Source: Crocosphaera subtropica ATCC 51142 | GTDB taxonomy: Bacteria; Cyanobacteriota; Cyanobacteriia; Cyanobacteriales; Microcystaceae | NCBI RefSeq assembly: GCF_000017845.1 | Contig: NC_010546.1 | Location: 4,770,001-4,802,000, forward strand | Direction of reading: 5' to 3' | Length of the DNA stretch: 32,000 bases | Part shown: piece after piece, positions 3,510 through 31,113 of the stretch | How the letters are laid out: every line of letters begins with the position of its first letter | How positions within the stretch are numbered: position 1 is the first letter of the stretch | Position numbers and translations under genes: made by a program | Notes under the pieces: generated by a model | What the model was told of the DNA's origin: nothing | What the model saw: only the letters and a program-made list of their open reading frames with translations | Database searches by the model: none

Positions 3510-6500
3510 TTAGATAATAAAGTTACCTAAATTATTCAATTCAGTGGTTTCAACTCCTAAAACAAAAAGGAGTTTTTTCGATTTAGCTTCCTCTGAAAAC
3601 CCATCAGAATCAACGGTCACAAGAGTACCTATACCACGAGAAACAAAACCCAGATAACCTTCTGCGATCGGATCAATCCCTTCAAATTCAATCTCATCTA
3701 AAAGTTGACTCAGATCAATTGTGTCTTTACCGACTTGAAAATCAATCAAGATGTCTCTACCATCTTTTAAACCAGTGTAGACGATAGTATCTTCGCCACC
3801 ACCACTAATAATAATATCCCGACGTTCAAAACCTGTGATTCTATCATTATGGTGAGTTCCTAGAAGAAAATCGCTCCTACGGGTTCCTTCAATGATATTA
3901 GGAGGGGTTTCAAAAGTAAAACTAGCCAACACTGGATCATGATCGCTTGCAAGGGACTCTGTTGCTGCAAATTCAGAATTGATATTCACAATATCAATCT
4001 CAGCATTATTGAATAAACTATCACTGACTAAAATATGATCCAGTTGTTGAGAGTTTCCTTGGAAAATAAAGCTATATCGCTCATCTTCAGCAATATTATT
4101 GACCAAGTTGCTTAAAACCGCATCACCACCTGTGATCGTCTCCTGGCCATTGTTGGTACTTTCTAGGGTTCCTTCTAAAATTGGTAAGGGTGAAACGAAC
4201 TCAAACTCGTTTAAGTCTCCTAACACCACAACATTTCCATTGGGATCGTTACTCAAAACCCCGTCAACAAAATCGTTGACTGCTTGTGCTTGTTCTCTAC
4301 GTTCATTCAGAGAACCATTAACCGTGATATCTTCTTGACGAGCAGCAAAATCTTGTTCAACTCCGAAAATGGGTGCGCTACCCCCTTTTGAGGAAAAATG
4401 GTTATTAATAACGGTGACAATTTCCCCCTGAAATTCAAAGTCAACCGCTAAGGGTAAACGTGCGCCGTTGAAGGGTTCCCCAGATACTTGTGAGCCAATG
4501 GGTTGCACCGAAGCAACGCTCACTTGATTAGGATCATAAAGATAAGCAGTACGAATATTACCCCCAGGTTGACCCCCACTTTGATTATTGGTGATAAAGG
4601 TGTTATCGATAAATTCGTATTGAGGACCACCAGCATCAACGATAGCATCTACCAACCGTTGCAGCGTTTGATCAGCCGAAACAGTTCCATCGTCAACGGA
4701 ACCACTGTTATCTTGGATTTCCTGTAAACCAATAATATCGGGACTGTTGAGATTATTGATAATTTGTTGAGCAATGGTATCAAAGCGGCCATCCGCTACG
4801 TCCGTATCTCCGTCGTTATCGTTGGGATCAAGGTTCAATACATTGTAGGTAGCAATGGTTAGGTTATCCACTGTATTGTTAATCGTGGTGGTTTCTGGAG
4901 TTAACCCGGCAGATTGAATATTCCCAGTAAAGTTAACAGTTGGCACAATTTGGAAATTACCAAAGTCGTAACTAATCACCCCAGTCACATCCCCTAAACT
5001 GTCTCCCGTATTCACTTCTGGATTATCAAAACCAGACACATCAAAATCGGTGTCAATTTGGATTTTTTCGGGGTTGAAATCATCAGAACTAATATTCAGG
5101 GTTCCTCGTTGACTAATTCCGGTGGTGTTGCTGCCTTGGTTAGTAACTGCGAAAATTTCCCCAAAACGATTAGTCCCTGACACAGCGACTAAATCCTCTG
5201 CGGTGACTAACATCCCTTCTAAGGACTCGAAAAAGTCAATGCCATCATTAACCGGATCAAAAGATGTAAAGGCATCATCATCGATATGAGTAGAGGGTGG
5301 AATTCGTCCACCAGTACCGATTACAGTGGCTACAGGAAGCGCATTCCCTTGAGAAAGGGTAGAAATAGTCGGACCACTAATTTGAGTGGTGGATAGGTTA
5401 CCGGTGCTAACACCACCAGGAACAAATTCTGAAACCGTTCCCGTCACTTCTAATTCATCTCCGACCATAACCCCCGGTGCGCCATTGGTAAAGACGAAAA
5501 TCCCATCTGAGGTAGCTATGTCACCATCTCCTGCGGGATCTTGTAGATAAAATCCGTTATTATCCACTGCGGTAACAATCCCTGTGGTGGTAACGGTCGT
5601 CCCTTCTAAAGTAGAAGTGTGACTGGTTCCTTGAATCTCGTAGATAAACGTCATTTCAGCAGGGGGAGGCGTAGAAGACTCGTTAACACTGCCGGGGGTT
5701 GGGGTTTGAGCAATAAAAGACCCTGTTGCATCGGGAACCCGACTGAGGGAGTCGTTATCGTCTCCATTGGGCCCTGAGTTTTCGTTAAATTGGATAGTTT
5801 GTCCTAAACCATTGAGTAACTCTGCGTCATCAGCATCGTTGGTGCCATAGGCGATCGCATCGATTAAATTACTTGAGGTGACGGGGGTTCCACTAGGGAA
5901 GTCTGAAGCATCCCCTGCGTATAAAGCAACCGCATCCGCTCCATTTTGCAGACTATTGGTGGTAAAGGCCACTAAATCAACATTCGGCACCATAGCACTG
6001 CCAATGACAAAAAATCCTTCAGGGTTAGTGGTTTGACCGTCAAGATCGATGGCATTGTAAGATACATCGCCGTTCCCGTTGTACAAGACCACCACTAAAC
6101 CATCCAGGGAGGTATTACCCACGCCACCGTCATAGAGTTCGATAAATTCAACAGAATCGGTTCCAGGGGTATCGCTATCAATTTCATTAATGATTACATT
6201 GGCCACAGAACCCCCTGTGGTTGCTGAGGTTGGGGTGTTAGCTGACCCTAAAAAGAAATCGCTGATTACCCAATCACTGGCTTGATCTGTATCTACGCCA
6301 TCGTTCACCCGTCTAGCGCCGGCCGGGAAAAAGGAACCATCTGGTCCAATCACTGGAGTCCCAAAGAAAAAGGTATCCCCGATATCCCCATCCCTTAGTG
6401 CAACGGCATCAAGAACTGCCTCACTCCCTGTCACTGTAGTCCCAGACAAACTGCTGGTTTCCACTAGGGCAAAGGTTTGACTACTATTTTCCAGAAAGTT

Positions 6501-7268
6501 ATCACTAATCTCAAGATCAGGGGTAACGCCATAGTTAGTTCCTAAACCGATGGGATTTCCAATCAAAAAAAAGCTGTTATCGCCGATGACATGGGTAGCA
6601 TCAAAATCAATGCGACGGTCAATGGTTCCTTCTAGTCCACTGTCCCCTTCAACAACAATTAAACTCAAGCCATCGAGAGAGGTTTGAGGAATGCCAAACA
6701 GTTCGATAAATTCGGTATCGTCGGTTCCTGTGTGACTGGCATATATTTCATTGAGAACGACTGTAGACTTGGCATTGACAAAGGTTTGATGACTATTAAT
6801 CTCACCAGGGGTATCGTCAGTTTGCACTGTCCAGGTGAACTCCTCTGCTTGACTACCGATTCCGATGAGTTGCAAGGACGCACCGACACGAGTATCGCTG
6901 GATTCTAGGACACCAATATCAGTGGTAGTTAACCCTTCTGCTGGACCAGACACGGCGGTAAAACTGCCTTCATAGCTCAAAAATTGAACAACATTACCGC
7001 TATTATCAATTAAGGCAATGCCATCAGGGGAACCGTTTTGAATACCGTTAGTGGGAAAGGGGATAGTAACAAATCCAAACCCGTTACGAGGATTGGTAAA
7101 GGTTTGTCCCGATAAATCAATCGTATTGTAGGGAACCCCCGTTGCACCATTGTATAAAATTAGGCTCCAACCTGTGAGATCCAAACCGAGTAAACCGACT
7201 AATTCAATAAATTCGCCACTGTCTGTTCCACTATTATCATAGTGAAATTCATTGATAAATACACTCAT
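3510..7268 (-). CDS. nucH: Extracellular nuclease of the ExeM/NucH type: three lamin-tail domains, an OB-like domain, an endonuclease/exonuclease/phosphatase (EEP) domain and an RTX-like C-terminal tail
   Basis: 1252-aa ORF. LTD signatures INEFHYDNSGTDSGEFIEL, LNEIYASHTGTDDTEFIEL and INEIDSDTPGTDSVEFIEL. OB-like segment IYEIQG...GFYLQD. EEP motifs TYNVLNL, GLQEIQDN and SDHDPV. C-terminal repeats GTHHNDRIT, SGGGEDTIV and DTIDLSQL. No signal peptide. Confidence 0.85.
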   Translation of the reverse strand: MSVFINEFHYDNSGTDSGEFIELVGLLGLDLTGWSLILYNGATGVPYNTIDLSGQTFTNPRNGFGFVTIPFPTNGIQNGSPDGIALIDNSGNVVQFLSYEGSFTAVSGPAEGLTTTDIGVLESSDTRVGASLQLIGIGSQAEEFTWTVQTDDTPGEINSHQTFVNAKSTVVLNEIYASHTGTDDTEFIELFGIPQTSLDGLSLIVVEGDSGLEGTIDRRIDFDATHVIGDNSFFLIGNPIGLGTNYGVTPDLEISDNFLENSSQTFALVETSSLSGTTVTGSEAVLDAVALRDGDIGDTFFFGTPVIGPDGSFFPAGARRVNDGVDTDQASDWVISDFFLGSANTPTSATTGGSVANVIINEIDSDTPGTDSVEFIELYDGGVGNTSLDGLVVVLYNGNGDVSYNAIDLDGQTTNPEGFFVIGSAMVPNVDLVAFTTNSLQNGADAVALYAGDASDFPSGTPVTSSNLIDAIAYGTNDADDAELLNGLGQTIQFNENSGPNGDDNDSLSRVPDATGSFIAQTPTPGSVNESSTPPPAEMTFIYEIQGTSHTSTLEGTTVTTTGIVTAVDNNGFYLQDPAGDGDIATSDGIFVFTNGAPGVMVGDELEVTGTVSEFVPGGVSTGNLSTTQISGPTISTLSQGNALPVATVIGTGGRIPPSTHIDDDAFTSFDPVNDGIDFFESLEGMLVTAEDLVAVSGTNRFGEIFAVTNQGSNTTGISQRGTLNISSDDFNPEKIQIDTDFDVSGFDNPEVNTGDSLGDVTGVISYDFGNFQIVPTVNFTGNIQSAGLTPETTTINNTVDNLTIATYNVLNLDPNDNDGDTDVADGRFDTIAQQIINNLNSPDIIGLQEIQDNSGSVDDGTVSADQTLQRLVDAIVDAGGPQYEFIDNTFITNNQSGGQPGGNIRTAYLYDPNQVSVASVQPIGSQVSGEPFNGARLPLAVDFEFQGEIVTVINNHFSSKGGSAPIFGVEQDFAARQEDITVNGSLNERREQAQAVNDFVDGVLSNDPNGNVVVLGDLNEFEFVSPLPILEGTLESTNNGQETITGGDAVLSNLVNNIAEDERYSFIFQGNSQQLDHILVSDSLFNNAEIDIVNINSEFAATESLASDHDPVLASFTFETPPNIIEGTRRSDFLLGTHHNDRITGFERRDIIISGGGEDTIVYTGLKDGRDILIDFQVGKDTIDLSQLLDEIEFEGIDPIAEGYLGFVSRGIGTLVTVDSDGFSEEAKSKKLLFVLGVETTELNNLGNFII

Positions 7269-7298
7269 TTCTTTTTATTTGATTAGGATAGTATTTTA

Positions 7299-7358
7299 AA
7301 ACACACAATTTATCTCAAGTTTTTATGATTGTTGAAATAGCAATTTTATTGTGTGTTT
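7299..7358. promoter_or_regulatory. Perfect 11-bp inverted repeat AAACACACAAT/ATTGTGTGTTT in the nuclease leader/promoter. A third CACACAAT copy lies at 7382..7389.
   Basis: Arms at 7299..7309 and 7348..7358, 31-90 bp upstream of the ATG at 7268. Confidence 0.35.
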
Positions 7359-7403
7359 AAGGTAAACGTTTATCAAAATATCACACAATAAATCAGATTG
7401 AAA

Positions 7404-7446
7404 TTTAACTTGAAAAATTAAACTTTCCTTGAACTTTTCTTAACTT
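7404..7446 (+). promoter_or_regulatory. Pho-box-like array of direct 8-bp repeats (candidate SphR/PhoB site) upstream of the nuclease gene
   Basis: TTTAACTT (7404), ATTAAACT (7417), CTTGAACT (7428) and CTTAACTT (7439). The last three are exactly 11 bp apart. The published cyanobacterial consensus is PyTTAAPyPy(T/A). The units read on the strand opposite to the gene. Confidence 0.4.
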
Positions 7447-7556
7447 TTAAAAATCACAAAATATGGCATTACAAAAATTAGTAAAGATTAAAAAAGACCA
7501 GAGAATGGTAGTTGATTACCTTATCTCTTGGTCCAATCGTCTTGATTCTATGTGCT

Positions 7557-8909
7557 TTAACGCATGGTAACAAACTCTTCTGCCGAAGTGGGATGAATCC
7601 CAACGGTTGCGTCAAAATCAGATTTTTTCGCTCCCATTTTCACAGCGATCGCCACTCCTTGAATAATTTCAGCAGCGTAGTTGCCTACCATATGGGCCCC
7701 TAAGACTTTTTCCGTTTCTTGATGCACCACTAATTTCATCAGGGTTTTTTCGTCTTTTCCTGGTAAAACGTAGTACATAGGACGGAATTTACTGCGATAA
7801 ACTTTGATAGCGTCTTCTCCATACTGTTCTTTCGCTTCTGCTTCGGTTAAACCCACCGTAGCTGCTTCAGGGGTACTAAAGACAGCAGACGGAACATTCT
7901 CATAACTCATGGTGCGAGATTTTCCGCCAAAATGGGTATCAGCAAAGGCCCGTCCTTCATTAATGGCCACAGGGGTTAAATTAATTTGATCCGTACAGTC
8001 TCCCACTGCATAAATATTTTCTTGAGAGGTACAGCTATATTTATCAACAGCGATCGCCTCTTTTTTAACTTCAACCCCGGCATTTTCTAACCCTAAATTA
8101 TCTAAACTGGGTTTACGTCCGGTAGCTGCTAACCCGATAGTATCCGCTAAGACCATTTCGTTATTTTGGTCCCCTTGAACGGCAATTTTTAACCCTTGGG
8201 ATGTTTTTTCAATGGAGGTAATGGTACAATTTTTGAGGATTTGGATACCATGATGTTCCATTGATTCTTGAATGGTGGTTCTGATGTCTTCATCAAAGCC
8301 GTTGAGAATTTTATCCCGACGAATAATTTGAATAACATCCGATCCTAACCCACGCATAATACAGGCAAATTCTACCCCAATATAACCGCCTCCCCAGATT
8401 ACCAGCCGTTTTGGTTGTTCGGTTAGGGTAAACATATCATCAGAAATAATCGTATTTTCAATCCCTGGAATGTTAGGTCTAACCGGATGTCCACCCACTG
8501 CAATTAAAATTTTATCGGCAGTAACTTTAGTATTTCCTACTTCTATGGTGTGGGGATCAAGTAATTTTCCATAGTCTCGATAAACTTGGACATTTGATTT
8601 ATCTAACATCCGTTGATAAATACCATTAAGACGTTCCGTTTCTTGATTAACGGCGGTGATCATTTTTGACCAATCTAAGGTACTTTTAACTGGACTCCAA
8701 CCATAGCCTTGAGACTCCTGAAACTGCGCTGGAAAATGAGACGTATAAACCATTAATTTCTTAGGAATACAGCCTCGATTAACACAGGTTCCTCCTAAGC
8801 GATCATATTCTGCTAAACCCACTTTTGCCCCATATTCTGCGGCCCGTCTAGCAGTAGCAATCCCTCCTGAACCGCCACCAATGACGAATAAATCAAAATC
8901 ATAACTCAT
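7557..8909 (-). CDS. gor: Glutathione-disulfide reductase
   Basis: 450 aa. FAD motif GGGSGG, redox-active GGTCVNRGCIPKK, NADPH motif GGGYIG, C-terminal HPTSAEEFVTMR. Confidence 0.9.
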   Translation of the reverse strand: MSYDFDLFVIGGGSGGIATARRAAEYGAKVGLAEYDRLGGTCVNRGCIPKKLMVYTSHFPAQFQESQGYGWSPVKSTLDWSKMITAVNQETERLNGIYQRMLDKSNVQVYRDYGKLLDPHTIEVGNTKVTADKILIAVGGHPVRPNIPGIENTIISDDMFTLTEQPKRLVIWGGGYIGVEFACIMRGLGSDVIQIIRRDKILNGFDEDIRTTIQESMEHHGIQILKNCTITSIEKTSQGLKIAVQGDQNNEMVLADTIGLAATGRKPSLDNLGLENAGVEVKKEAIAVDKYSCTSQENIYAVGDCTDQINLTPVAINEGRAFADTHFGGKSRTMSYENVPSAVFSTPEAATVGLTEAEAKEQYGEDAIKVYRSKFRPMYYVLPGKDEKTLMKLVVHQETEKVLGAHMVGNYAAEIIQGVAIAVKMGAKKSDFDATVGIHPTSAEEFVTMR

Positions 8910-9456
8910 AATAATACAAATCTCCTAATTTTTTGGTATTTTTTTCCTTGTGCTTTGTGTCTTCTGTTCTACATCTTATCGCTTCTTGGGATAGTTGTTG
9001 GTAATATTTAGTCATCGATTAATCATCTTTCGTCCCTACAGACAGGATTAACATAAATTCTCTGTTTTCTTATTCAACTTGTCTATGAAATTGTGCAAGA
9101 AGTGGGATAAAAATTGGAGAAAAATCAAGGGGCGAAGGCTAAAAAATCAAGATAAACTTAAGACAAAGAGAAATCAAACTTTTGTTGAGATTGGGAGCAT
9201 CCTAAAGTTATAAATAGCCCTTTATTAATAATAGTTAATTCTAGGAATTTCACCCCGTCCCTCTATCTACCCGTTCCCCCGTCAATACTAAATAATACCC
9301 AGGTTATCAAAATTGATCAGAAAATTGTTATAGTATATCTTCCCATCGTTACCCAAGAGTGGGATGATAAAGACAAACCTTGGGGCAAATCATAGATCGG
9401 GAGTTGCCCACTCCACACTGATTGTTGTCTTATCGTAGTTTATTTCAAGAAAAATT

Positions 9457-11469: not shown

Positions 11470-11503
11470 TTCATTCCTAATTCTTGTTATTAATCAATTC
11501 AAA

Positions 11504-11529
11504 CCCTCTAAGTTTTTAGGGGGTTTTTT
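11504..11529 (+). terminator. Rho-independent terminator of tkt
   Basis: Stem CCCTCTAA/TTAGGGGG with loop GTTT, followed by TTTTTT, 35 nt after the tkt stop codon. Confidence 0.7.
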
Positions 11530-11703
11530 CTTATTGCCCTTAAATCTTATATGAAATCTCTATATTTGCTACAAAAGACTGCAAGAAAACCCATGAGGAA
11601 GGGGAGTAGGGAGATATATAATTTGTAGCATTCTTATTTCTATTTGATATTACGAGGTAATAATTCATGATTATAATAGATTCGCAGTCAATTGATATTA
11701 TTC

Positions 11704-13152: not shown

Positions 13153-15090
13153 ATGAAATTATCTATATTTACTTATCCTATCAGTTTGATTATCTTATGT
13201 TTAACTCCATTAATAAGCTGTTCTTCTGGTCTTGTTAACACAACAATCCTAACACCAAAACTTAGCCAAATGTCTTCTCTAAAATTGCCTGAAGTTGAGC
13301 CAAAATACCGTAATCAATGGACAGCAGCATTAGAAAAAGACTTTCAAAAAAGAGCCTTAGAAATTATTGATTTTTATGCCGATAGAAAAAGTTACGGTAA
13401 TGCCTACGGAGAAAATGAAAAACGGTCTTATCCTAGGGCAATGTTGGATTTTTTAGCAGGAAATGAAGAGAAGGCGATCGCTTTTTTACAACAAGAAGAC
13501 CCTCAAGCTGAACGACATCAACATACGGACGGCATTGATTACTATTATTGTTTTACGTTAAAAGGACAAATTCGTAAGTATTTCTTATACGGAAAATTTC
13601 TCGAACCTGACTATAAACAACGAATGTTTGAAGGGGCAAAAAAATGGACATCTGAAGATCCTTTAATGCGTCCCCACCCTGTTTACGGGTTAGGAGATGG
13701 TAGTGGTAGAGACTGGGATATTAGTCGCCGAGGAAGATGGGTTGATGGTAGAAATACAGACAATTTAAGGGCGATGAGAGAAACATCTGTTTACTTGATG
13801 GCTGAAGAAACAGGTAACGAAGAAACACGGTTAATTTATAAAGAAAAAATCCAGCGATATGTCTGGGCTTTATATCATATTGGTATGGGAGAATGGGACT
13901 CAGAAGTGTATCACGGACATACGTTTGCACCCTATCTAAATCTTTATGATTTTGCCAAAGATCCTGAAGTTAAATTATTAGCAAAAGCAGCTTTAGATTG
14001 GATGTCTGTGGCTGCTGCCATTAAATATTATCGAGGAGGTTGGGGAGGCCCAGTAAAACGAGATTATGGAGGGGGAAATGTAGCGATGGGGTCATCTTCT
14101 GCTAGAACTTTTTGGTTATATTTTGGCGATACTCCTTTACCCAATCATCACCCTGAAGAGGATACTTTATTCTTAATTACCAGTTCCTATCGTCCCCCTT
14201 TAGCGGCGGTAAAATTAGCCCATAAAGACTTTAAAAAACCTTTAGAAATTCTTAGCACTAAACCGTTATATGAAAATTGGAAACCTGGGAATTCTGATGA
14301 ACCGGGTTACTGGGAAACGCAGTTTTTTGGCAATACTTATCAGATGGGAAGTTTAGCTGCTAAATTTGCTGATGGTGATGTTGCCCCGTTTAAATTAATG
14401 GCTGATAATTCTCAGCGAGGGGTTGATTATTTTGTGGTTAATACGGGGAAAAAGTTGGTTAGGCCAGGTAAACAACCAGGGGATCAAATAGGACAATATC
14501 GTAATCTTTTGATTTGGTTGCGTCCTCCCTCTCAGTCTAATTTTAATTTTCAAATACCTAACAATTCTCTAGCAGAAATTGAGGAGAATATTTGGTTTTT
14601 AAAACTTGAAAAAACTTGGTTAGCAGTGCATCCTATTAACTTAAAATCTTACCAAGAAGTGACTAATAATAAAGATAAATATTTACAAGAAAGATTTTTA
14701 ACAGCAGAAAAAAATCAGGAAAACTTTTACGGGTTCGTTTTAGAAGTTGGGGAAAAAGAAACTCATGGAAGTTATGAACAATTCAAAGAAAATAGCAAAA
14801 AAAAGAGTCAGCTTAATTTAGAAAAGCTGACTAGAGGAATTGTCAATTATCAAGGAACTAACGGACAAACCTTACAATTAATTTACAATACGCTTAATCT
14901 TTTACCGATGATTATCCGTAATGGCGACTTACATCAATGGTCAAAAAATTTTGCCCTTTATAACAGCCAAACTAAAGATAAGCAACCTATCTTTCTGGGT
15001 TACAAAGAAGGAAAACTACAAATCAAAGCAGGGGGTTATGAGTTTACAACTGAAGTTAGTAATGAGAGAAAAGTTGTGGTTTCTCCCTAA
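13153..15090 (+). CDS. Hypothetical lipoprotein of unknown function
   Basis: 645-aa ORF starting 7 nt after the preceding gene. Lipobox-like signal LTPLISCSSG. I recognised no family motif. Confidence 0.6.
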   Translation: MKLSIFTYPISLIILCLTPLISCSSGLVNTTILTPKLSQMSSLKLPEVEPKYRNQWTAALEKDFQKRALEIIDFYADRKSYGNAYGENEKRSYPRAMLDFLAGNEEKAIAFLQQEDPQAERHQHTDGIDYYYCFTLKGQIRKYFLYGKFLEPDYKQRMFEGAKKWTSEDPLMRPHPVYGLGDGSGRDWDISRRGRWVDGRNTDNLRAMRETSVYLMAEETGNEETRLIYKEKIQRYVWALYHIGMGEWDSEVYHGHTFAPYLNLYDFAKDPEVKLLAKAALDWMSVAAAIKYYRGGWGGPVKRDYGGGNVAMGSSSARTFWLYFGDTPLPNHHPEEDTLFLITSSYRPPLAAVKLAHKDFKKPLEILSTKPLYENWKPGNSDEPGYWETQFFGNTYQMGSLAAKFADGDVAPFKLMADNSQRGVDYFVVNTGKKLVRPGKQPGDQIGQYRNLLIWLRPPSQSNFNFQIPNNSLAEIEENIWFLKLEKTWLAVHPINLKSYQEVTNNKDKYLQERFLTAEKNQENFYGFVLEVGEKETHGSYEQFKENSKKKSQLNLEKLTRGIVNYQGTNGQTLQLIYNTLNLLPMIIRNGDLHQWSKNFALYNSQTKDKQPIFLGYKEGKLQIKAGGYEFTTEVSNERKVVVSP

Positions 15091-21406: not shown

Positions 21407-22456
21407 TTATTCTTCTTCTTCTCCATCTCCTTGAGAAATAGCAAAGCTCAAAGATCCCAGTTCTAACTTTTCCCGTACCTGTTGTTCAATGGTTTCGGCA
21501 ATCTTAGGATTTTCTTCTAAATATTTGACGGCATTATCTCTTCCTTGAGAAATATTGTCTCCGTTGTAACTATACCAAGCTCCTTTACGAAGAACCACAT
21601 CACTTTGTTCAGCTAAATCTAACATACATCCCATACGAGAAATTCCCTGACCAAAAATGATGTCAAATTCAGCAATGCGAAAGGGTGGGGCTACTTTATT
21701 TTTAGCCACTTTCACCTTGGCACGAATTCCATATTCCCCTTCACTACCTTTTTTCAGGGTTTGAATGCGACGAATATCTAAACGCACCGAAGCGTAAAAT
21801 TTCAGTGCAGTTCCTCCGGTGGTGACTTCGGGACTACCATAAGTGATACCAATTTTTTGCCGTAACTGGTTCAGGAAAATGACCACACAGCCAGATTTAC
21901 CAATATTTCCCGCAATTTTACGCAAGGCTTTACTCATTAAACGAGCTTGCAAACCCACTTGAGTATCTCCCATTTCCCCTTCAATTTCTGCACGGGGAAC
22001 TAAGGCAGCAACCGAGTCGATCACGACCACATCCACCGCAGCCGATCGCACTAATTGATCGACAATTTCTAAGGCAGATTCTCCGGTATCCGGTTGAGCG
22101 ACCAATAAATTATTAATATCGACCCCCAAAGCAGCCGAATAAGTGGGATCTAAAGCGTGTTCTGCATCTACAAAAGCCGCCACACCACCAGCCTTTTGCA
22201 CCTCTGCGATCGCATGAAGGGCGAGGGTTGTTTTCCCAGAACTTTCTGGCCCGTAAATCTCAACCACTCTTCCCATCGGGAGTCCACCCCCCAAGGCTAG
22301 ATCTAGGGTTAAAGCCCCGGTTGAGATGGTTTCCACCTTCATTCTGGCTGCGTCTCCTAGACGCATAATGGAGCCTTTACCGAAATTTCGCTCAATTTGG
22401 TTGAGAACTAAGCCTAATGCCTTTTCTTTATCAGGATTGTTTGTAATCGCAGCCAT
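21407..22456 (-). CDS. recA: Recombinase A
   Basis: 349 aa. Walker [10 protein letters not shown], the canonical RecA core and an acidic C-terminal tail. Confidence 0.97.
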
Positions 22457-22489
22457 TAATGCCTCTATCTATTCTTACACAACAAATTT

Positions 22490-22503
22490 AGTACAAAAGT
22501 ATT
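22490..22503. promoter_or_regulatory. Candidate cyanobacterial LexA box upstream of recA
   Basis: AGTACAAAAGTATT has one mismatch to the published RGTACNNNDGTWCB pattern. It lies 34-47 bp upstream of the recA ATG. Confidence 0.3.
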
Positions 22504-22687
22504 TGTCTATTATAGCTTGTTTTGCTGACAAGAACTCTAATGATGACAATTTTGTGATAGTCTCTTTTTTCTAGGGTAACATTGAATTTAAGATTCGTAA
22601 GGGAGAAAATTTACGGTAATTTCTGCCTATTATCACTTAATTCTAGAAAATTAGCTAACGTTGACCCAATTATCTGTTTAAAAAATC

Positions 22688-24154: not shown

Positions 24155-24230
24155 GCTCAGTTAGGTTAAAGATAATAACCGTTCAGGTAATAAAGGAGGT
24201 GATGCCCATGACAGATAGTAGTAGTAAAAC

Positions 24231-24355
24231 CATGGGTCTCCTGATTGAAGTTAGCCGGCTGTGCGCCGGGGCTGTTCTCTAGAAGTTAAGTCCCCCTGGA
24301 TCTAACTGTAGCTGGAGTTCCTTCCGGCAGTTAGGTTTCAATCAGAAGACCCGTG
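24231..24355. ncRNA. GC-rich, highly base-paired element: candidate structured RNA or palindromic mobile element, strand unresolved
   Basis: A 19-bp closing stem, CATGGGTCTCCTGATTGAA/TTCAATCAGAAGACCCGTG (one mismatch, one wobble), encloses hairpins CCGGC..GCCGG and CTAACTG..CAGTTAG. It is 54% GC by my count within AT-rich spacer, with stop codons in all frames. Confidence 0.4.
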
Positions 24356-24440
24356 AACCAGAATTTAACCCTCTAGTTCCCTTAGTGATAAGCTAATCAG
24401 GGACTGGGGGGTTTGAGCTGTCAAGATAAAAACATATTTC

Positions 24441-24480
24441 TTTAATAAAATTTAATATTTAACTTAAAATCTTTTAACAA
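24441..24480 (+). promoter_or_regulatory. Weak Pho-box-like repeats upstream of the alkaline phosphatase gene
   Basis: TTTAATAA (24441), TTTAATAT (24451), CTTAAAAT (24463) and TTTAACAA (24473), spaced 10-12 bp on the gene strand, 84-123 bp upstream of ATG 24564. The background is AT-rich, so chance matches are likely. Confidence 0.25.
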
Positions 24481-24563
24481 TCTATTACTGTGGGCTTAAT
24501 TTAGCCTTGGTAGCTTAATCACTGTGCTTGATTAAACTTTACATTGCGCAGCAGATTAAAGAC

Positions 24564-27500
24564 ATGGCCAACAATAATAGTGTAATTTTCATTCATCCTG
24601 ATGGAACCAGTCCTTCCCATTTTATGGCTGGACGCTTGGTTTCCGTCGGTCCTGATGGTCTTCTTAATTGGGATAGGATGACCAAGGCAGGGGTTTACCT
24701 AGGACACATGGAAGACCAACTGGTGGGGACTTCTAATGCAGGGGCTGTAACTCATGCCTTTGGCATTAAAGCTTTCTCTGGTAGCTACGGTTTAGACGAA
24801 AACGGGAATCCTTACACTTCTCTTTCTGGTCAAGAAGGCATGACCATTATGGAAGAGGCGATCGCAGCCGGAAAAGTTACTGCCGTGATCAACTCTGGAT
24901 TCATTGCCGAACCCGGAACCGGGGTTTTCCTGGCAGATACCGAAAATCGAGGTAATGTAGAAGAAATCACCTTAGAAATCGTCGAATCTGGGGTGGATGT
25001 GATTATGGGGGGTGGTGAAATTCACTACTTACCCGAAGGAGTGACGGGACGCTTTGGAGAAGAAGGAATTCGCGAAGATGGACGGAACCTGATCGAAGAA
25101 GCCCAAGCAGACGGTTACACCGTGGTTTACACCCTCGAAGAGTTAGCCAATTTACCCGCTAATACCGAGAAAGTTTTAGGGATTTTTGCAGCAGAAGACA
25201 CCTACAACGACACCACAGAAGCTAGATTAAAAGAGCAAGGCTTTGAGGATGAACAAGGCAATTTAATCCTCTATGGTCAACCCGGAAACGAAAATCCTCC
25301 CACCGTTTCCCAAATGCTAGAGGCAACTTTAGGGTTAGATATCTTTCAAAATCCTGAGAATGGAATGTTTGTGGTGCTAGAAGAAGAAGGCACCGACAAC
25401 TTTGGCAACAATAATAACGCAGCCGGCACCATCGAAGCCGTTTTACGAGCCGATGCGGCCATCGGTGTGGCTCAAGACTACATCGATAATGTTAACCCTC
25501 ATACTTTGTTAATCACGGCCGCCGATAGTGATGGGGGTGGTTTAGAAGTCGATGATCGTTCAGGGGAAACCGTCGGCACCACCAGAGTACAACCCCCCTT
25601 CGATCCCGATCCCAGAGTTCCCTACGATGGCACTACAGGGAACGATACCGCTCCTTTTGTCACCGGCCAACCGGACGCTAATGGGGACACCTTTGAATTT
25701 GGAGTGTTATGGTCTGGAAACCCCGACGTAGCAGGAAGTATTGTTTCTAAAACCTACGGGTTAAACGCCGAGAAACTCCCGGCCACCGTGGACAACACAG
25801 GGATTTATCGCTTGATGTACGAAACCCTATTTAATGTTGCTTTAGATGCACCAGAAGGGATTCCTGATGAGATTCCTGAACCCCCTGCACCCACTAAAGA
25901 GACAGGAAACGTCATCTTTATCCATCCCGACGGCACCAGTCCCTCCCATTATGCGGCAGCTCGTTTTTCCTCAGTGAGTCCCGATGGTCGTTTGAACTGG
26001 GATAATATGACCGATGCCGGGGTTTATCTCGGTCACATGGACGATCGCATTGTTGGCACTTCTAATGGGGGTGCAGTGGTTCACGCCTATGGGATTAAAC
26101 CCTATGCTGGCAGTTACGGGTTAGATGCAGATGGGAACCCTTACACCTCCTTATCCGGGTTGGAAGGAACCACCATTATGCAAGAAGCGATCGCAGCAGG
26201 GAAACCCACGGCAGTGATCAACTCTGGCTTTATCGCCGAACCCGGCACCGGTGTTTTCCTCTCAGCAGCAGAAAATCGTAGCAACGTTCAAGAAATTACT
26301 CTAGAAATTGTTGAATCCGGTGTTGATGTGATTATGGGGGGTGGTGAAATTCACTATCTACCCGAAGGAGTAACGGGACGCTTTGGAGAAGAAGGAATTC
26401 GCGAAGATGGACGGAACCTGATCCAAGAAGCCCAAGAAGATGGTTATACCGTGGTTTACACCCTCGAAGAATTACTCAATTTACCCACGAATACCGAGAA
26501 AGTCTTAGGGATTTTTGCAGCAGAAGATACCTACAACGACACCACAGAAGCTAATTTAGTTGAGCAAGGTTTTGTCAATGAAGACGGCAGTTTAATTCTC
26601 TACGGTCAACCCGGTAACGAAAATCCTCCTACCGTCGCCCAAATGCTAGAAGTCACGTTAGGGTTAGATCAATTTGTTAATGCCGAAGACGGCTTCATGG
26701 TGGTTCTCGAAGAAGAAGGGGCCGACAATTTTCCCAATAATAATAATGGGGCAGGTGCCATTGAAGCAACGCTACGGGGAGATGCTGCCATTGGAGTAGC
26801 CCAAAACTTTGTTCGCAATGTTAACCCCAATACGTTAGTCTTAACGGCTGCTGATAGTGATGCTGGTGGTTTAGAAGTGGATGACGTATCCGGTGAAACT
26901 GTGGGGAGCGTCACTGTTCAGGGTCCTTATGAAAACCGAGTTCCCCGTGACGGTGTGGAAGGGAATGATGGCACTCCTTTTGTCACGGGCGCACCGGATG
27001 CCAATGGGGATACGTTTGAATTTGGCCTAGCTTATGCCAGCACCACCGATGTCGCAGGTAGTATTGTTGCTAAGTCATTCGGTTTAAATTCTGACCTCTT
27101 AAAAGCCACAGCAGACAATACGGATATGTACCGTATTATGTACGAAACCCTGTTTGGGGTAGCTCCTGAAGACGTAGAACGATTTGATCCTGTCGCCTTT
27201 GGGTCTGCTGAAGATGACTTTTTTGATACGGTGATCTCTGGTAGTGACTTTGTGGGTGCAGCGAATCAACTTCTCTTTGCTGGCAGTGGCAATGACTATG
27301 TGGACGTTTCTCAGACTCCCGATGCGTTTAATCGTATTGACTTGGGCAGTGGTGATGATCTGTTCTTTGCTGGAAGTGGCGATCGCATTCTAGCTAGTTC
27401 TGGAGATGATATTCTCTTTTTGGGTTCTGGTGGTGATAATGTCGTTACAGGAGGTTCCGGAAGCGATCAATTCTGGCTTCTTACTGACTCAGAAGATTTA

Positions 27501-27701
27501 CCAACTATGGCGAATACTATCACTGATTTTGCCATTGATGAGGATGTCATGGGCTTTGGTGCTACTGATCTTGATTTTGATCAGCTAACCTTAACCCAAG
27601 AAGGTAATAGTACAGTGATCAACGCTTTAGGACAGGATTTAGCCATCTTATCCAATATTCAAGCCAGTGATTTAAGTGCTTCTGATTTTGTCTTTGCTTA
27701 A
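24564..27701 (+). CDS. phoA: Atypical alkaline phosphatase with a tandemly duplicated catalytic domain and an RTX-like C-terminal module
   Basis: Each half carries IFIHPDGTSPSH, VGTSN(A/G)GAV.HA.GIK (compare PhoA TDSAASATA), VVLEEEG.DNF and TAADSD.GGLE. The C-terminus has AGSGNDYVD, LGSGDDLFF and GGSGSDQFW repeats. I prefer the ATG at 24564 (MANNNSVIF) over the TTG at 24528. No signal peptide. Confidence 0.8.
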   Translation: MANNNSVIFIHPDGTSPSHFMAGRLVSVGPDGLLNWDRMTKAGVYLGHMEDQLVGTSNAGAVTHAFGIKAFSGSYGLDENGNPYTSLSGQEGMTIMEEAIAAGKVTAVINSGFIAEPGTGVFLADTENRGNVEEITLEIVESGVDVIMGGGEIHYLPEGVTGRFGEEGIREDGRNLIEEAQADGYTVVYTLEELANLPANTEKVLGIFAAEDTYNDTTEARLKEQGFEDEQGNLILYGQPGNENPPTVSQMLEATLGLDIFQNPENGMFVVLEEEGTDNFGNNNNAAGTIEAVLRADAAIGVAQDYIDNVNPHTLLITAADSDGGGLEVDDRSGETVGTTRVQPPFDPDPRVPYDGTTGNDTAPFVTGQPDANGDTFEFGVLWSGNPDVAGSIVSKTYGLNAEKLPATVDNTGIYRLMYETLFNVALDAPEGIPDEIPEPPAPTKETGNVIFIHPDGTSPSHYAAARFSSVSPDGRLNWDNMTDAGVYLGHMDDRIVGTSNGGAVVHAYGIKPYAGSYGLDADGNPYTSLSGLEGTTIMQEAIAAGKPTAVINSGFIAEPGTGVFLSAAENRSNVQEITLEIVESGVDVIMGGGEIHYLPEGVTGRFGEEGIREDGRNLIQEAQEDGYTVVYTLEELLNLPTNTEKVLGIFAAEDTYNDTTEANLVEQGFVNEDGSLILYGQPGNENPPTVAQMLEVTLGLDQFVNAEDGFMVVLEEEGADNFPNNNNGAGAIEATLRGDAAIGVAQNFVRNVNPNTLVLTAADSDAGGLEVDDVSGETVGSVTVQGPYENRVPRDGVEGNDGTPFVTGAPDANGDTFEFGLAYASTTDVAGSIVAKSFGLNSDLLKATADNTDMYRIMYETLFGVAPEDVERFDPVAFGSAEDDFFDTVISGSDFVGAANQLLFAGSGNDYVDVSQTPDAFNRIDLGSGDDLFFAGSGDRILASSGDDILFLGSGGDNVVTGGSGSDQFWLLTDSEDLPTMANTITDFAIDEDVMGFGATDLDFDQLTLTQEGNSTVINALGQDLAILSNIQASDLSASDFVFA
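24579..27161 (+). repeat. Intragenic tandem duplication, period 1329 bp (443 codons): unit 1 at 24579..25838, unit 2 at 25908..27161
   Basis: VIFIHPDG at codons 19 and 462 of the track ORF. GATTATGGGG at 25001 and 26330. The units are colinear throughout, with one 2-codon indel near the end. Confidence 0.9.
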
Positions 27702-27894
27702 TATCTTAGGTCGTGATTTCTAGATGGATTTAATACTGTTACTGATTTGACTTTTGCATAACATAAAAAATTGGGATAGTTCTCTCTTGTTTGACGGGAC
27801 TATCCTAATTCTTAATACTAGATCGATTGTATTAAAGTCCGAGACAAAATTCTTACATAGCAGTACAAAAATTAGTTAGGACATTTTTTATATT

Positions 27895-28008
27895 CATATC
27901 TTGCACCTTCGATCACATTAGCTAGTTTCTAAGGGTTCAGCCATCAGCAGTCAGCTATATGTCTATAACACTGAACGGTGAGTGCTGAATGCTTACATTA
28001 TTAAGTTT
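27895..28008. repeat. Dispersed repeat family A, copy 2 (uninterrupted, inverted relative to 3197..3470)
   Basis: The reverse complement aligns with 3197..3306 plus 3448..3470. Core palindromic element at 27930..27995. Confidence 0.7.
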
Positions 28009-28036
28009 ATGTGTTCTAGTGCAAGATGTCAGTTAT
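28005..28036. repeat. Short dispersed repeat family C, copy 2
   Basis: See 21297..21328. Confidence 0.55.
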
Positions 28037-28042
28037 CTCTTT

Positions 28043-28105
28043 GGTTGTCATTCCGAGGAACGAGGAATCTCATTAATGCCCTAACCATAACCCGTAGTGC
28101 TATAG
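28043..28105. repeat. Dispersed intergenic repeat family B, copy 2
   Basis: TTGTCATTCCGAGGAACGAGGAATCTCATTAATGCCCTAACCATAACCCGTAGTGCTATAG. It contains the tandem CGAGGAA CGAGGAA and ends 8 nt from the stop codon at 28114..28116. Confidence 0.6.
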
Positions 28106-28113
28106 ATAAAGAA

Positions 28114-31113
28114 TTAAGCAAAGACGAAATCGGCTGCACTCAAAACAGAAAGGTCAGTATTCAGTAAAATGGCTAAATCTTGGTCAAAGGCATTGATCAT
28201 GGTACTACTGCCCTCTTGAGTTAAGGTTAATCCATTAAAATCAAGCTCAGCCGTCGCAAACCCGATAACATCTTCCCCAGAGGTAAAGTCAGTAATGGTA
28301 TTTGCTTCAAGAGGTAAGTCAACCGTATCGGTAATAAGCCAGAATTGATCCATTCCAGCCCCCCCGGTAATGACGTTATTACCGCCACCAGAGCCAACCA
28401 ATAAGACATCATCACCTGATCCGGCCAAAATGCGGTTATCAGTACCACCGAAGAGATAATCATCTCCCGAACCCAAGTCAATGCGGTTACCACCAGGTGC
28501 AAAGGTAACATCTACTATGTCATCCCCAGAACCAGCAAATAACTTTTGTTCCTCACCGATAAACCCTTTTTCGTCAGGCACTTCCGTATCAAAATAATCA
28601 TCATCAGAGGTTCCAAACACGAGATCAGGAACTTCTGGTTCAGCTTCCAGTTGAGACTCAACAAACTGAGAGAGTCCGGGTAAATCATCCGTATTAATTA
28701 AATCCACCTCAGCTTCGTATAGGGGTTCCCAAACACTAGGACCATCTTTAGGTAAATTCCAGAATCTGACGATTTTATCTTCCCCTTGGACTTGTTCAAC
28801 AATATTCGCTAATTCAGCTTGAGTATCTTCAGGAATAGTGCCGATTCCATCCCAAGCTAAGTCCCCGTTGAAAAAATTATTCCAATTATCACTAATGAGA
28901 GGCATAAAGCCAGGATCTTCATTAGTACCGATGTCACTTCTGCGACCATCATAACCGGCATAACGGACTTCCTGACTTTCCATAAAGTCTCTGGGACGGT
29001 TGCCAGAAATAATGGGGGTCACAGCACCAGGCGTAACCGTATAGCTTCCAGTTCCATCTTGCTCGTAAGTGGTAAATAAACCAGGAGACTCGGTTTGATA
29101 TTCAGTTAAAACTTCATGCAGTCTTTGATAAGTCGAAAGTCCATCACTCTTGATATCAACTAAGAGGGTTAAAGAGGTGCCATCTTCGTAAACACCTCCA
29201 TTATTAAACTCTTCATATAAATCTTGGAGAGGATCAAGATAAAGTTCTTCTATGGTGGGTAAGGTAGCAGGATCATCAACGGGATCATGAGCAACCCGTA
29301 AATTGTTGTTATCGTCAGGATACAGCCAGATATCTGATTCTACACTCACGAAACCGTAGCTCAGAGCATCTAATAAAGGAAATAGATGTTCATAATCGTT
29401 GTGAGCGTGGGTACGAGGCAAAGATTCGCTTCTAGGAGTAGGAATTTCCGCTAAAAAGGCTAACTGTCCCCCTTGAACTAAGTTTTCCTCAGCAATGACT
29501 CCATCTCGTAAACTGTGTGCTTGAGTATCGAAGAGGAATAAATTACCGTTTTCCCGTCCGAATAGTTCTGTTACATCTAAAATACCAGAAGATTCCCAGT
29601 TGCCAATATCATCAGGAGAGGGATCGGTTTGAGCAATGGGATCAACTGGTACGCCAGAACGATCCATTTGAGCAATACGGGTTAATTCTCCAGTTTCGGG
29701 GTCTAATTCCCAAATAGAAGCTTCTTCCCCTGATGTTCCCCCAAACAGAGAACCAGGAGAGGTAGAACGGTCTTCATTAATATAAATTTTACCGTTGTCT
29801 GCCCAGTCTAAGTTATCAGGACTCCGTAACCCAAAATCAGGATCGCTAAATTCTCCATTCCCTGCATCGTCCCCATCGTATAAGATGTCAAGGTCAGCAC
29901 TAAGATCACTAAAATCTACCTCAACTTTGTAGGTGGTTCCCCAGTTATCGTCAGGGAAACGTCCACCCCGTCCCGTAGAGGCTAATACCGCTTCTGTACC
30001 ATCTTCGGGGTTGGTCGCTACGTCTTCAGGGCGAGAAAATTGAAATGCTCCTGCTTCGGCTACTAAAAAGTCTTGATAAATTTGGGTGGCGAAGCCTAGG
30101 GTATCGTAATCAAAAGTACCATCTCCATCTACATCGATGCCATCAAAAACACCATCCCCATCAGCATCAATATGAACACTTGCGTCAGTTGCGTCAATGA
30201 CTCCATCACTGTTGATATCTGCTGCATCAAAGATACCATCACCATTTAAGTCAGTATCAAAAACTAAATCTTCACGGTAATGTTCGATTTCTACAAAGCT
30301 ACCAGATAAGCTATTTCCAGTGCCGTTAAATCCGGCAGGATCAGGGTTATTATCGGGATCAGCTTCGTTGTCTGTATCCCCCACTTCTCCATCGGGAACC
30401 CAAGCATACAATTTACCCCCTGTTAACCCGTTCCGTTCTAGAAACCCTGCATCTACAGTGGTGTCTTTTTTCCCAACGTATAGTAATAGGGGTGCTGCTT
30501 CTCGGTCATCTCCCACTAAAATAGCCACTTCTTCGGTGTTACCGATATCGAGTTGGGTAACATTTTCCCATGCTGCCCTTCCTAACCAGGGAACCGCATA
30601 AAGGGTATTGGTAGCCACATCTAGGGCAAACTCTGTACCCCCAAAAGTTTCTTCTCCAGTGAAGTAAATACCATCAACAAAGCCATACCCTTCCCCAAAC
30701 TGGTGCGCTTCGATGTAAATTGAGGAACAGAGACGGTTAATTCCTTCAAATTCTAGGTCAGAGGCTTCGTCTACTTCTTCTCCAGCACGATTGATAATCG
30801 TATCATAAGCCAAACCTGCATCAATCACTTCTAAGGTTTGTTTATCAAAGTCAAAATAACTGACTCTGGCACCGGTTAAAGCGGTTCCATTGGCTAACGT
30901 ATAAGCATAACCTGAACCACTGGTTAATTCGTGGTTGGTTAAAACTCTAACGGTATTTTCATCGAGTTCAAATGCGCCAATACCATCCAAAATACCAACA
31001 GGAGTATAGTCTCCTGCTGTGGTTGGAATGGTTTCACCAATGGTAACCAATGGTTTAACGTCATAGCCATTTAGACCGATCATTTGAGCCGGTTGAGTGG
31101 TGGTAAATGCCAT
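28114..31113 (-). CDS. Multidomain secreted phosphoesterase: PhoX-like (DUF839) beta-propeller with a DxDxDG Ca-loop insert, a PLC/GDPD-like (AIM6-type) phosphodiesterase domain and an RTX-like C-terminal module
   Basis: 999 aa. PhoX-like motifs NRLCSS...IYFTGEE, WLGRAAWENV, FSRPEDVATNP and SPDNLDWADNGKIYINED. Ca loops DLNGDGIFD, DINSDGVID, DADGDGVFD and DVDGDGTFD. PLC-like THAHNDYEHLFPLLDALSYGFVSVESDIWL..LRVAHD. The tail is paralogous to that of the phosphatase at 24564..27701. No signal peptide. Confidence 0.7.
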   Translation of the reverse strand: MAFTTTQPAQMIGLNGYDVKPLVTIGETIPTTAGDYTPVGILDGIGAFELDENTVRVLTNHELTSGSGYAYTLANGTALTGARVSYFDFDKQTLEVIDAGLAYDTIINRAGEEVDEASDLEFEGINRLCSSIYIEAHQFGEGYGFVDGIYFTGEETFGGTEFALDVATNTLYAVPWLGRAAWENVTQLDIGNTEEVAILVGDDREAAPLLLYVGKKDTTVDAGFLERNGLTGGKLYAWVPDGEVGDTDNEADPDNNPDPAGFNGTGNSLSGSFVEIEHYREDLVFDTDLNGDGIFDAADINSDGVIDATDASVHIDADGDGVFDGIDVDGDGTFDYDTLGFATQIYQDFLVAEAGAFQFSRPEDVATNPEDGTEAVLASTGRGGRFPDDNWGTTYKVEVDFSDLSADLDILYDGDDAGNGEFSDPDFGLRSPDNLDWADNGKIYINEDRSTSPGSLFGGTSGEEASIWELDPETGELTRIAQMDRSGVPVDPIAQTDPSPDDIGNWESSGILDVTELFGRENGNLFLFDTQAHSLRDGVIAEENLVQGGQLAFLAEIPTPRSESLPRTHAHNDYEHLFPLLDALSYGFVSVESDIWLYPDDNNNLRVAHDPVDDPATLPTIEELYLDPLQDLYEEFNNGGVYEDGTSLTLLVDIKSDGLSTYQRLHEVLTEYQTESPGLFTTYEQDGTGSYTVTPGAVTPIISGNRPRDFMESQEVRYAGYDGRRSDIGTNEDPGFMPLISDNWNNFFNGDLAWDGIGTIPEDTQAELANIVEQVQGEDKIVRFWNLPKDGPSVWEPLYEAEVDLINTDDLPGLSQFVESQLEAEPEVPDLVFGTSDDDYFDTEVPDEKGFIGEEQKLFAGSGDDIVDVTFAPGGNRIDLGSGDDYLFGGTDNRILAGSGDDVLLVGSGGGNNVITGGAGMDQFWLITDTVDLPLEANTITDFTSGEDVIGFATAELDFNGLTLTQEGSSTMINAFDQDLAILLNTDLSVLSAADFVFA

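Follow-up and report, generated by a model that had tools for sequence, protein, structure and literature searches.

Three leaderless, RTX-tailed phosphorus-scavenging hydrolases of Crocosphaera subtropica as predicted substrates of type I secretion

How would hydrolases that scavenge phosphorus outside the cell get there if they carry no N-terminal export signal? The question is raised by a 32,000-nucleotide segment of the chromosome of Crocosphaera subtropica (formerly Cyanothece sp.) ATCC 51142 (hereafter, the window), which contains three large genes, cce_4625, cce_4642 and cce_4643, for proteins of this kind. From their sequences, we assign a probability of roughly 0.78 to the reading that all three are extracellular hydrolases exported by a type I secretion system (T1SS) via a C-terminal signal, with cce_4625 predicted to be a DNA/RNA nuclease, cce_4642 a tandem phosphomonoesterase of the PhoA type, and cce_4643 a fusion of a PhoX-type phosphatase with a probable phosphodiesterase. 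The open reading frames (ORFs) and coordinates given in the initial annotation agree with the ORF list and with exact database matches:

3510-7268, minus strand: cce_4625, 1252 amino acids (aa), exact match to ACB53973.1/WP_009543325.1
24564-27701, plus strand: cce_4642, 1045 aa, exact match to ACB53990.1/WP_009543311.1
28114-31113, minus strand: cce_4643, 999 aa, exact match to ACB53991.1

The architecture of a T1SS substrate, proposed for these proteins in the initial annotation, is supported in silico by the lack of a leader, by matches of the tails to RTX and T1SS-target hidden Markov models (HMMs), and by an acidic, cysteine-poor composition. The N-termini were examined for hydropathy, charge, the twin-arginine (RR) motif, N-terminal cysteine and upstream in-frame stops. 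A basic n-region, an h-region, an RR motif, a lipobox and an N-terminal cysteine are absent from all three, in line with the claim that they lack Sec, Tat and lipoprotein leaders and start inside a folded domain; by the same measure, the neighboring ORFs at 13153 (MKLSIFTYPISLIILCLTPLISCSSG, lipobox-like) and 11692 have clear hydrophobic leaders and thus serve as an internal control. Met1 of cce_4625 stands directly in the first LTD repeat (MSVFINEFHYDN...), and this motif is kept at residue 1-5 in most of the 119 homologs. The sole hydrophobic patch of this N-terminus, LVGLLGL (aa 24-30), follows a 20-residue acidic stretch and has acidic flanks; because the pattern FIEL...L.G..L recurs in the internal LTD copies, the patch appears to be a domain strand rather than the h-region of a signal. 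The start of cce_4643, MAFTTTQPAQM, which includes neither an RR motif nor an h-region that would indicate a Tat signal, is kept in the cyanobacterial homologs.

Standard predictors label a leaderless protein 'cytoplasmic' by default, and GenBank and RefSeq disagree on the start of cce_4642 (TTG at 24528, yielding 1057 aa, vs ATG at 24564, yielding 1045 aa), which might be taken to mean that the proteins are cytoplasmic or that the starts are mis-called and a signal peptide was missed. In-frame stops are located 3, 17 and 12 codons upstream of the starts of cce_4625, cce_4642 and cce_4643, respectively. The statement that the ORFs cannot be extended upstream thus holds for cce_4625 and cce_4643 but not for cce_4642, which can be extended by 12 codons to the TTG; this extension adds LIKLYIAQQIKD and contains no leader, and the RefSeq start is favored because the homologs begin at the equivalent of the ATG (M..NVIFIHPDG). 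With the first 10-30 residues conserved family-wide from residue 1, and with the cytosol being an implausible place for an unspecific nuclease and for RTX modules whose folding requires millimolar Ca2+, we consider both the cytoplasmic location and the missed signal peptide highly improbable.

The composition of the three proteins is equally uniform: cce_4625, cce_4642 and cce_4643 contain 0, 0 and 1 cysteines, respectively, and 171-197 Asp and Glu residues vs 34-41 Lys and Arg residues. Such an acidic, nearly cysteine-free composition is typical of T1SS substrates, and the paucity of cysteine fits export of an unfolded polypeptide without passage through the disulfide machinery of the periplasm. 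The published criteria for cyanobacterial T1SS substrates are identical, namely, no signal peptide, Ca motifs, low isoelectric point (pI) and few cysteines.

At the C-termini, the reported Gly/Asp repeats followed by a tail of about 70 aa were recovered, with approximately 75-90 residues after the last Gly/Asp turn, and RTX and T1SS-target HMMs match the tails:

3513..3905, minus strand: cce_4625 aa 1122-1252, degenerate RTX turns and a T1SS C-terminal target domain (TIGR03661, Peptidase_M10_C)
27183..27698, plus strand: cce_4642 C-terminal module of 172 aa, about six degenerate GxGxD turns followed by DQFW...ITDF..DEDVMGF...LSASDFVFA
28117..28632, minus strand: cce_4643 C-terminal module of 172 aa, of the same subtype as in cce_4642 (HemolysinCabind, Peptidase_M10_C)

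When scanned alone, the tail of cce_4625 scores 26.4 bits against TIGR03661, 'type I secretion C-terminal target domain' (cut-off 17.6), and 25.3 bits against Peptidase_M10_C (cut-off 20.7). The cce_4642 tail reaches 26.3 bits with HemolysinCabind, for which the gathering score is 23, along with RTX_toxin/serralysin C-terminal matches, and that of cce_4643 reaches 24.2 bits with the same model and 21.7 bits with Peptidase_M10_C. The tails also match C-terminal portions of the serralysin (Zn_serralysin, ZapA), PueAB and RTX-toxin models; in cce_4642 and cce_4643, for which no HMM defines a signal, the alignments reach the C-terminal ends of PueAB, RTX_toxin and SMc04171, and the tails finish in a conserved ..L(S/T)A.DFVFA (alignment A4).

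Under the T1SS reading, export would proceed in one step, with an uncleaved signal in the last 75-90 or so residues read by a HlyB-type ABC transporter that would act with HlyD and, in the outer membrane, a TolC-like channel, the genes for all three lying elsewhere in the genome. The polypeptide would cross unfolded, C-terminus first, and the Gly/Asp turns just upstream of the signal would bind Ca2+ outside the cell, form a beta-roll and nucleate the folding of the cargo. Secretion, the identity of the exporter, Ca dependence and induction by phosphate limitation are all predicted here by analogy with the RTX/T1SS paradigm. The closest well-known parallel is the serralysin/lipase group of RTX exoenzymes (AprA/PrtA, LipA/TliA, PueA/B), which likewise have no N-terminal signal, consist of a catalytic domain followed by Gly/Asp turns and an uncleaved C-terminal signal, and are acidic and cysteine-poor; it is the Zn_serralysin, ZapA, PueAB and Peptidase_M10_C models of this group that the three tails match. 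The Crocosphaera proteins differ from this group in that their cargo consists of phosphoesterases, their repeats are fewer and degenerate, and their genes do not form an operon with genes for an ABC transporter, a membrane fusion protein and an outer-membrane protein.

The catalytic parts of the three proteins are distinct. Protein cce_4642 is a leaderless tandem alkaline phosphatase with an RTX tail (Pfam Alk_phosphatase PF00245, 209 bits vs 24.4, in two stretches):

24564..25883, plus strand: alkaline phosphatase domain 1, aa 1-440 (Pfam Alk_phosphatase; PDB 3wbh, 3a52 and 3e2d at E 1e-14 to 1e-16)
25914..27176, plus strand: alkaline phosphatase domain 2, aa 451-871 (local alignment to domain 1)

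In a local alignment, the two domains are 76% identical at the protein level and 75% at the DNA level; double-domain homologs are found elsewhere (e.g., P0380, P0384 and P0385), so the duplication is not unique to ATCC 51142. The fold is that of the PhoA type of E. coli (PF00245), but PhoA is Sec-exported and disulfide-bonded, whereas cce_4642 is tandem, cysteine-free, leaderless and RTX-tailed.

In cce_4643, which has no leader, a PhoX-like domain is joined to a GDPD_2/AIM6-like domain and an RTX tail:

29431..31113, minus strand: aa 1-561, PhoX-like beta-propeller phosphatase domain (Pfam PhoX, AlphaFold2, Foldseek)
28645..29430, minus strand: aa 562-823, HAHNDY-motif domain, putative phospholipase C (PLC)/GDPD-like phosphodiesterase (GDPD_2 below cut-off)

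The label 'PhoX-like/PLC-like' given to this protein in the initial annotation is borne out for its first half. This region scores 36.9-40.4 bits against Pfam PhoX (PF05787; cut-off 24), and the AlphaFold2 model of aa 1-561 (pLDDT 90.7) retrieves, as the best Foldseek match, the Pseudomonas fluorescens PhoX 4a9v/3zwu (E 2e-20, TM 0.58; next fold 3e-6). Compared to the Tat-exported PhoX of P. fluorescens (3ZWU/4A9V), with which it shares the PF05787 beta-propeller at about 15% sequence identity, cce_4643 lacks the twin-arginine leader and carries a Crocosphaera-specific DxDxDG-rich insert, a second catalytic domain and the RTX tail. This Asp-rich insert of the DxDxDG type (DTDLNGDGIFDAADINSDGVIDATD...DADGDGVFDGIDVDGDGTFD; aa ~285-335, window 30100-30260) breaks the propeller, is modeled with a pLDDT of 51-66 and varies among the homologs; it may be an extra Ca-binding loop. 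The only cysteine of the protein, C129 (window 30727-30729), is invariant in 41 homologs, including non-cyanobacterial ones and those with Sec/type IX secretion system (T9SS)-type signals. It may match the cysteine metal ligand reported for the PhoX active site.

The PLC part of the label is weak, resting on a sub-threshold GDPD_2 match (20-21.4 bits, cut-off 27, covering just 30 positions) and a UniRef name. Sequence and profile searches with this middle domain gave no PDB or NCBIfam match, the sole Pfam label among its homologs is PF13653, and the AlphaFold2 model of aa 562-999, built from 6 aligned sequences, was unusable (pLDDT 41) and was not used. The assignment as a PLC-like phosphodiesterase is, on this sequence evidence, no more than plausible.

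Protein cce_4625 combines leaderless LTD repeats with a core of the extracellular-nuclease type of the endonuclease/exonuclease/phosphatase (EEP) family and the T1SS-type tail (Pfam LTD, Exo_endo_phos):

5679..7268, minus strand: aa 1-530, three LTD-like repeats (Pfam LTD, 60.6 bits, two stretches)
3912..5645, minus strand: aa 542-1119, OB-like domain and EEP core (PDB 9sf9/9sf8 EEP-domain protein, E 5e-88)

The NCBIfam model NF033681 (ExeM_NucH_DNase) aligns to aa 561-1099 over 509 of its 546 positions with 201 bits, below the curated cut-off of 300, and NF033680 (ExeM) gives 79.7 bits vs 1300. Judged by these scores, cce_4625 is a relative of the ExeM/NucH nucleases that has the same core and lies outside the curated subfamily. 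The LTD, OB-like and EEP architecture is that of ExeM (Shewanella), Xds (Vibrio cholerae) and NucH (Aeromonas, Synechocystis sll0656); compared to these, cce_4625 lacks the Sec leader, ends in an RTX/T1SS tail rather than in the GlyGly-CTERM of the ExeM type, and is not in an operon with a phosphatase.

A change of export signal finds its best support in the relatives, across whose families leaders and tails are separated. Nearly all cyanobacterial members of the PhoX-like family (1049 matches) open with M..FDTTQPAQ.KGLNGY and are leaderless, most of the members of about 700 aa finishing with PF00353 repeats and ..L(T/S)A.NF.F, whereas Bacteroidota-like members have a classical Sec leader and a T9SS Por_Secre_tail. 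Among 113 complete N-termini of this family, 70 belong to leaderless proteins with RTX repeats and 7 to proteins with a leader and no RTX repeats (several with Por_Secre_tail); the two features were combined in none (0/113). In the LTD-nuclease family (5579 matches), 110 of 116 proteins are leaderless, with the start M..VFINEFHYDN, and 105 of these 110 are cysteine-free; the remaining 6 have a leader and, with one exception, 2-7 cysteines. Some of these relatives are named 'type I secretion C-terminal target domain-containing protein' at NCBI. The alkaline phosphatase family divides similarly: 13 representatives start with M..NVIFIHPDG, contain 0-1 cysteines and include 8 with an RTX tail, and another 47 have a signal-like N-terminus, no RTX motifs (0/47) and, mostly, cysteines; in single-domain members with a leader, the leader sits directly before the same NVIFIHPDG motif. 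The homologs of the cce_4643 middle domain (n=2978) are mostly stand-alone proteins of about 300 aa, with a Sec-like leader in 96 of 117, many PEP-CTERM-like ends and few leaderless RTX versions. That Sec leaders and RTX tails are so strictly separated points to the tail as a substitute for an export signal, and the idea that these enzymes have been re-routed is upheld at the family level, with Sec leaders in other bacteria (accompanied by a T9SS tail, a PEP-CTERM-like tail or no tail) and leaderless, RTX-tailed proteins in cyanobacteria. Thus, the same catalytic modules seem to be tagged for different export routes depending on the lineage, the combination of leaderless, cysteine-free and RTX-tailed being, apparently, the cyanobacterial solution. 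A simple rule for the three enzyme families would follow, with leaderless, cysteine-free, RTX-tailed enzymes on one side and enzymes with a Sec leader and cysteines on the other.

Several observations weigh against the T1SS reading. The RTX repeats of the three proteins are few and degenerate, and the nonapeptides of cce_4625 score only 12.2 bits against HemolysinCabind (PF00353), compared to the gathering score of 23. A considerable number of the cyanobacterial relatives lack both a leader and a recognizable RTX tail, so that leaderlessness alone is no proof of T1SS export; examples are homologs of cce_4643 of about 1305 aa that combine phytase-like, GDPD and PhoX domains and end in GGQLAFLT (P0086-P0101 and similar). 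Domain scans and a scan for Walker A/LSGGQ motifs agree with the original statement that the 32 kb contain no ABC exporter, membrane fusion protein or TolC-like gene. For the rest of the genome, the T1SS inventory was taken from Table S2 of Linhartová et al. 2010 (PMC3034196): four HlyB-type ABC genes (cce_2193, 2355, 2670 and 3060) and four HlyD genes (cce_2192, 2356, 2678 and 3059) are listed for this strain, which speaks for the T1SS reading, and no TolC by TIGR01844, which speaks against it. A motif scan around the loci that encode related tails detected an ABC exporter within 8 kb in 2 of 78; the exporter is unlinked in the other 76, as in the window.

Evidence of regulation is similarly mixed. 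We scanned the window for Pho boxes, defined as three tandem 8-bp repeats (CTTAACCT-like, with 3-bp spacers; consensus from Su et al. 2007; maximum score 24). Sites with scores of 20-21 of 24 were detected upstream of all three genes, including two weak ones as follows:

31343..31372, minus strand: Pho-box-like triple repeat, score 21/24, ~230 bp upstream of cce_4643, with a perfect CTTAACCT at its end
24473..24502, plus strand: Pho-box-like triple repeat, score 20/24, 60-90 bp upstream of cce_4642

The site of cce_4625 is wrongly oriented, and the statistics are weak, with 14 such sites in the window vs 7.7 in shuffles; these two facts also count on the negative side. Phosphate regulation of the three genes is plausible by analogy with related systems, such as the Pho-box-regulated phoA-nucH operon of Synechocystis.

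The scarcity of adjacent T1SS genes and the leaderless relatives without RTX tails, together with the many leaderless proteins in cyanobacterial exoproteomes, of which putative T1SS substrates are a small share, speak for a route other than T1SS, namely, outer-membrane vesicles, lysis or an undescribed non-classical pathway, in which case the RTX-like module would be a Ca2+-dependent folding or stability domain only. We consider such a route improbable given that the match of the tails to the models for T1SS target domains and serralysin C-termini extends as far as the last residues, that the acidic-plus-hydrophobic end ..DFVFA is conserved across at least 17 cargo types, and that leaders and tails separate as described above. 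Furthermore, there is one direct linkage of an alkaline phosphatase to HlyB and HlyD: in a metagenome-assembled genome (MAG) of Halothece (L061:6153-15031), the gene for an RTX-tailed alkaline phosphatase is separated by 1.9 kb from a downstream ABC gene (1012 aa), which is in turn followed by an HlyD gene. The order is alkaline phosphatase with the 172-aa tail, a 247-aa ORF, a peptidyl-prolyl isomerase, the ABC transporter and HlyD, and the ABC protein consists of cNMP-binding, C39-like, ABC_membrane and ABC_tran domains.

Export by T1SS leaves two destinations for the enzymes, release into the medium or retention at the cell surface or S-layer as bound phosphatases and nucleases, which would differ in destination and not in route. 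The RTX proteins of cyanobacteria include many that belong to the surface layer or serve motility (e.g., SwmA and oscillin), the three LTD modules of cce_4625 could bind polymers at the surface, and an enzyme held there would keep the freed phosphate local. However, Pfam and NCBIfam scans identified no SLH, PEP-CTERM or GlyGly-CTERM anchor in the three proteins, and related RTX phosphatases of Synechococcus were recovered from the culture supernatant, so surface retention appears unlikely, if clearly less so than a non-T1SS route.

Beyond the individual proteins, the tails of cce_4642 and cce_4643 define what is, by the alignments, a distinct subtype that is new here. In the module of 172 aa, some six degenerate GxGxD turns precede the motif DQFW(L/I)VTD..DLP..AN.ITDF..GEDVIGF...LTL.Q.G..T.INALGQDLAIL.....LSA.DFVFA (alignment A4). 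Recent gene conversion or an inverted repeat was considered as the source of the similar tails of the two convergent genes and rejected because their identity is only 62% at the protein level and 66% at the DNA level. The tail of cce_4625 is of a different, TIGR03661-like type, so the genome has at least two tail types for phosphorus-scavenging cargo.

In a representative library of 1.8 billion proteins, the 172-aa module was found on otherwise unrelated leaderless proteins, at 49-66% identity. The cargo of the 15 full-length proteins comprises PhoX with an AIM6-like domain; PhoX; another alkaline phosphatase type; SurE nucleotidase; phytase-like with phytase; phytase-like with EEP and PhoD; phytase-like with EEP; phytase-like; EEP with 5'-nucleotidase (twice); EEP; one weak EEP match; one choice-of-anchor-I protein; and two FG-GAP/ASPIC proteins, which are the only clear exceptions. 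A survey of loci, with one genome per species and the cargo assigned by local BLAST against labelled domains, yielded 72 loci, all cyanobacterial by label except for one MAG labelled Chloroflexaceae. Tail identity is 51% or more at 22 loci (L007-L028), which carry phosphoesterase cargo in 18 cases (alkaline phosphatases, PhoX, EEP/5'-nucleotidases, GDPD and SurE) and other cargo in none, the remaining four being truncated or too short to classify; among the tails that are 40-50% identical, the cargo is mixed, with phosphoesterases in only about 14 of 50 loci. All copies of the tail that were found in C. chwakensis (4/4) and in strain SU3 (3/3) are on phosphoesterases.

This association could mean that the 172-aa tail is a cargo-class-specific export module, a 'phosphorus-scavenging secretion tag', a suggestion that is tentative and, on present sequence data, doubtful; the alternative is mere module shuffling among paralogous phosphoesterases. 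If the tail is such a tag, there might be one dedicated T1SS, possibly Pho-regulated and with a HlyB of the cNMP-binding/C39-like type as in Halothece, and the whole phosphorus-acquisition secretome could be switched on via one exporter. A tail subtype that marks phosphoesterase cargo could serve in the mining of phosphorus-scavenging secretomes or as a secretion tag. The tail-cargo association seems to be a modest addition to a known class.

Indeed, RTX-tailed phosphatases and nucleases in cyanobacteria are, as a general principle, already in the literature. Linhartová et al. 2010 (PMC3034196) found RTX proteins to be most abundant in cyanobacteria and counted ~20 RTX nucleases, nucleotidases and phosphodiesterases, 4 phytases and 5 phosphatases; the catalogued enzymes, which include alkaline phosphatases, nucleotidases, GDPDs, EEP nucleases and phytases, belong to the same class as those analyzed here. 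Thirteen RTX proteins, including the phytase cce_3495, are listed for this strain in Table S2 of that work, and cce_4642 appears in Table S1 (YP_001806056.1, 1057 aa, 3 Ca sites, pI 3.65, 'phosphatase'); cce_4643 and cce_4625 are absent from the list, which was obtained by pattern search. In the exoproteome of Synechococcus WH8102, the phosphatases SYNW0196 and SYNW2390 (NP_896291.1 and NP_898479.1), both on the RTX list, are abundant; in Synechocystis under phosphorus limitation, a PhoB-controlled T1SS/RTX cluster yields the most abundant exoprotein; and phosphatases and a GDPD are present in Anabaena exoproteomes. A full-text search for the three locus tags returned nothing, and a wider search of the literature for T1SS-dependent phosphatases with experimental proof yielded nothing specific. 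Accordingly, the description of such a secretome as little characterized is only partly right, given that cce_4642 was catalogued in 2010, about 30 RTX phosphoesterases have been counted and the Synechococcus enzymes were detected in the exoproteome. Because the three proteins fit a class already catalogued in cyanobacteria, the finding is sound but mostly ordinary.

Its interest is largely ecological. Crocosphaera and its relatives rank among the important nitrogen fixers of the sea and often face phosphorus limitation, and which enzymes are placed outside, and by which route, determines the usable pools of dissolved organic phosphorus, that is, monoesters, diesters and nucleic acids. Leaderless phosphatases are labelled 'cytoplasmic' by standard localization predictors, and recognizing them as T1SS cargo would correct ecological inference from metagenomes.

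The gene neighborhoods offer few further clues. The remaining 14 ORFs of at least 100 aa in the window are all ordinary and encode a fatty-acid desaturase, a PaO-type Rieske oxygenase, a NUDIX hydrolase, a pyridine-nucleotide disulfide oxidoreductase, a transketolase, a periplasmic binding protein, an amine-oxidase-type flavoprotein, a pentapeptide-repeat protein, PurE, RecA, CobQ and three proteins with no Pfam match. tRNA and Rfam scans of the window detected no tRNA or Rfam family, and a terminator scan found no terminator between the convergent 3' ends of cce_4642 and cce_4643. Horizontal transfer, considered as the cause of the raised GC content of the three genes, is not supported because their GC at third codon positions (0.32-0.41) equals that of the transketolase, PurE and RecA genes.

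In C. chwakensis CCY0110, the ortholog of cce_4643 is directly followed by CobQ and RecA (L005/L016, L007; window 24155-28113), and the ortholog of cce_4642 (tail 91% identical) is on a separate contig, which means that the tandem phosphatase gene was inserted, lost or relocated between the sister species. Anabaena cylindrica (L003:1-15156) has four large phosphoesterase genes in a row, encoding EEP+phytase+PhoD (1923 aa), choice-of-anchor-I+phytase (1513 aa), PhoX-RTX (725 aa) and an alkaline phosphatase (764 aa); thus, in other cyanobacteria, such exoenzymes are clustered rather than scattered. Within the window, the ORF of 645 aa at 13153-15090 on the plus strand, which lacks a Pfam match and has the lipoprotein-like leader MKLSIFTYPISLIILCLTPLISCSSG, is located directly 3' of the TPR/periplasmic-binding-protein gene.

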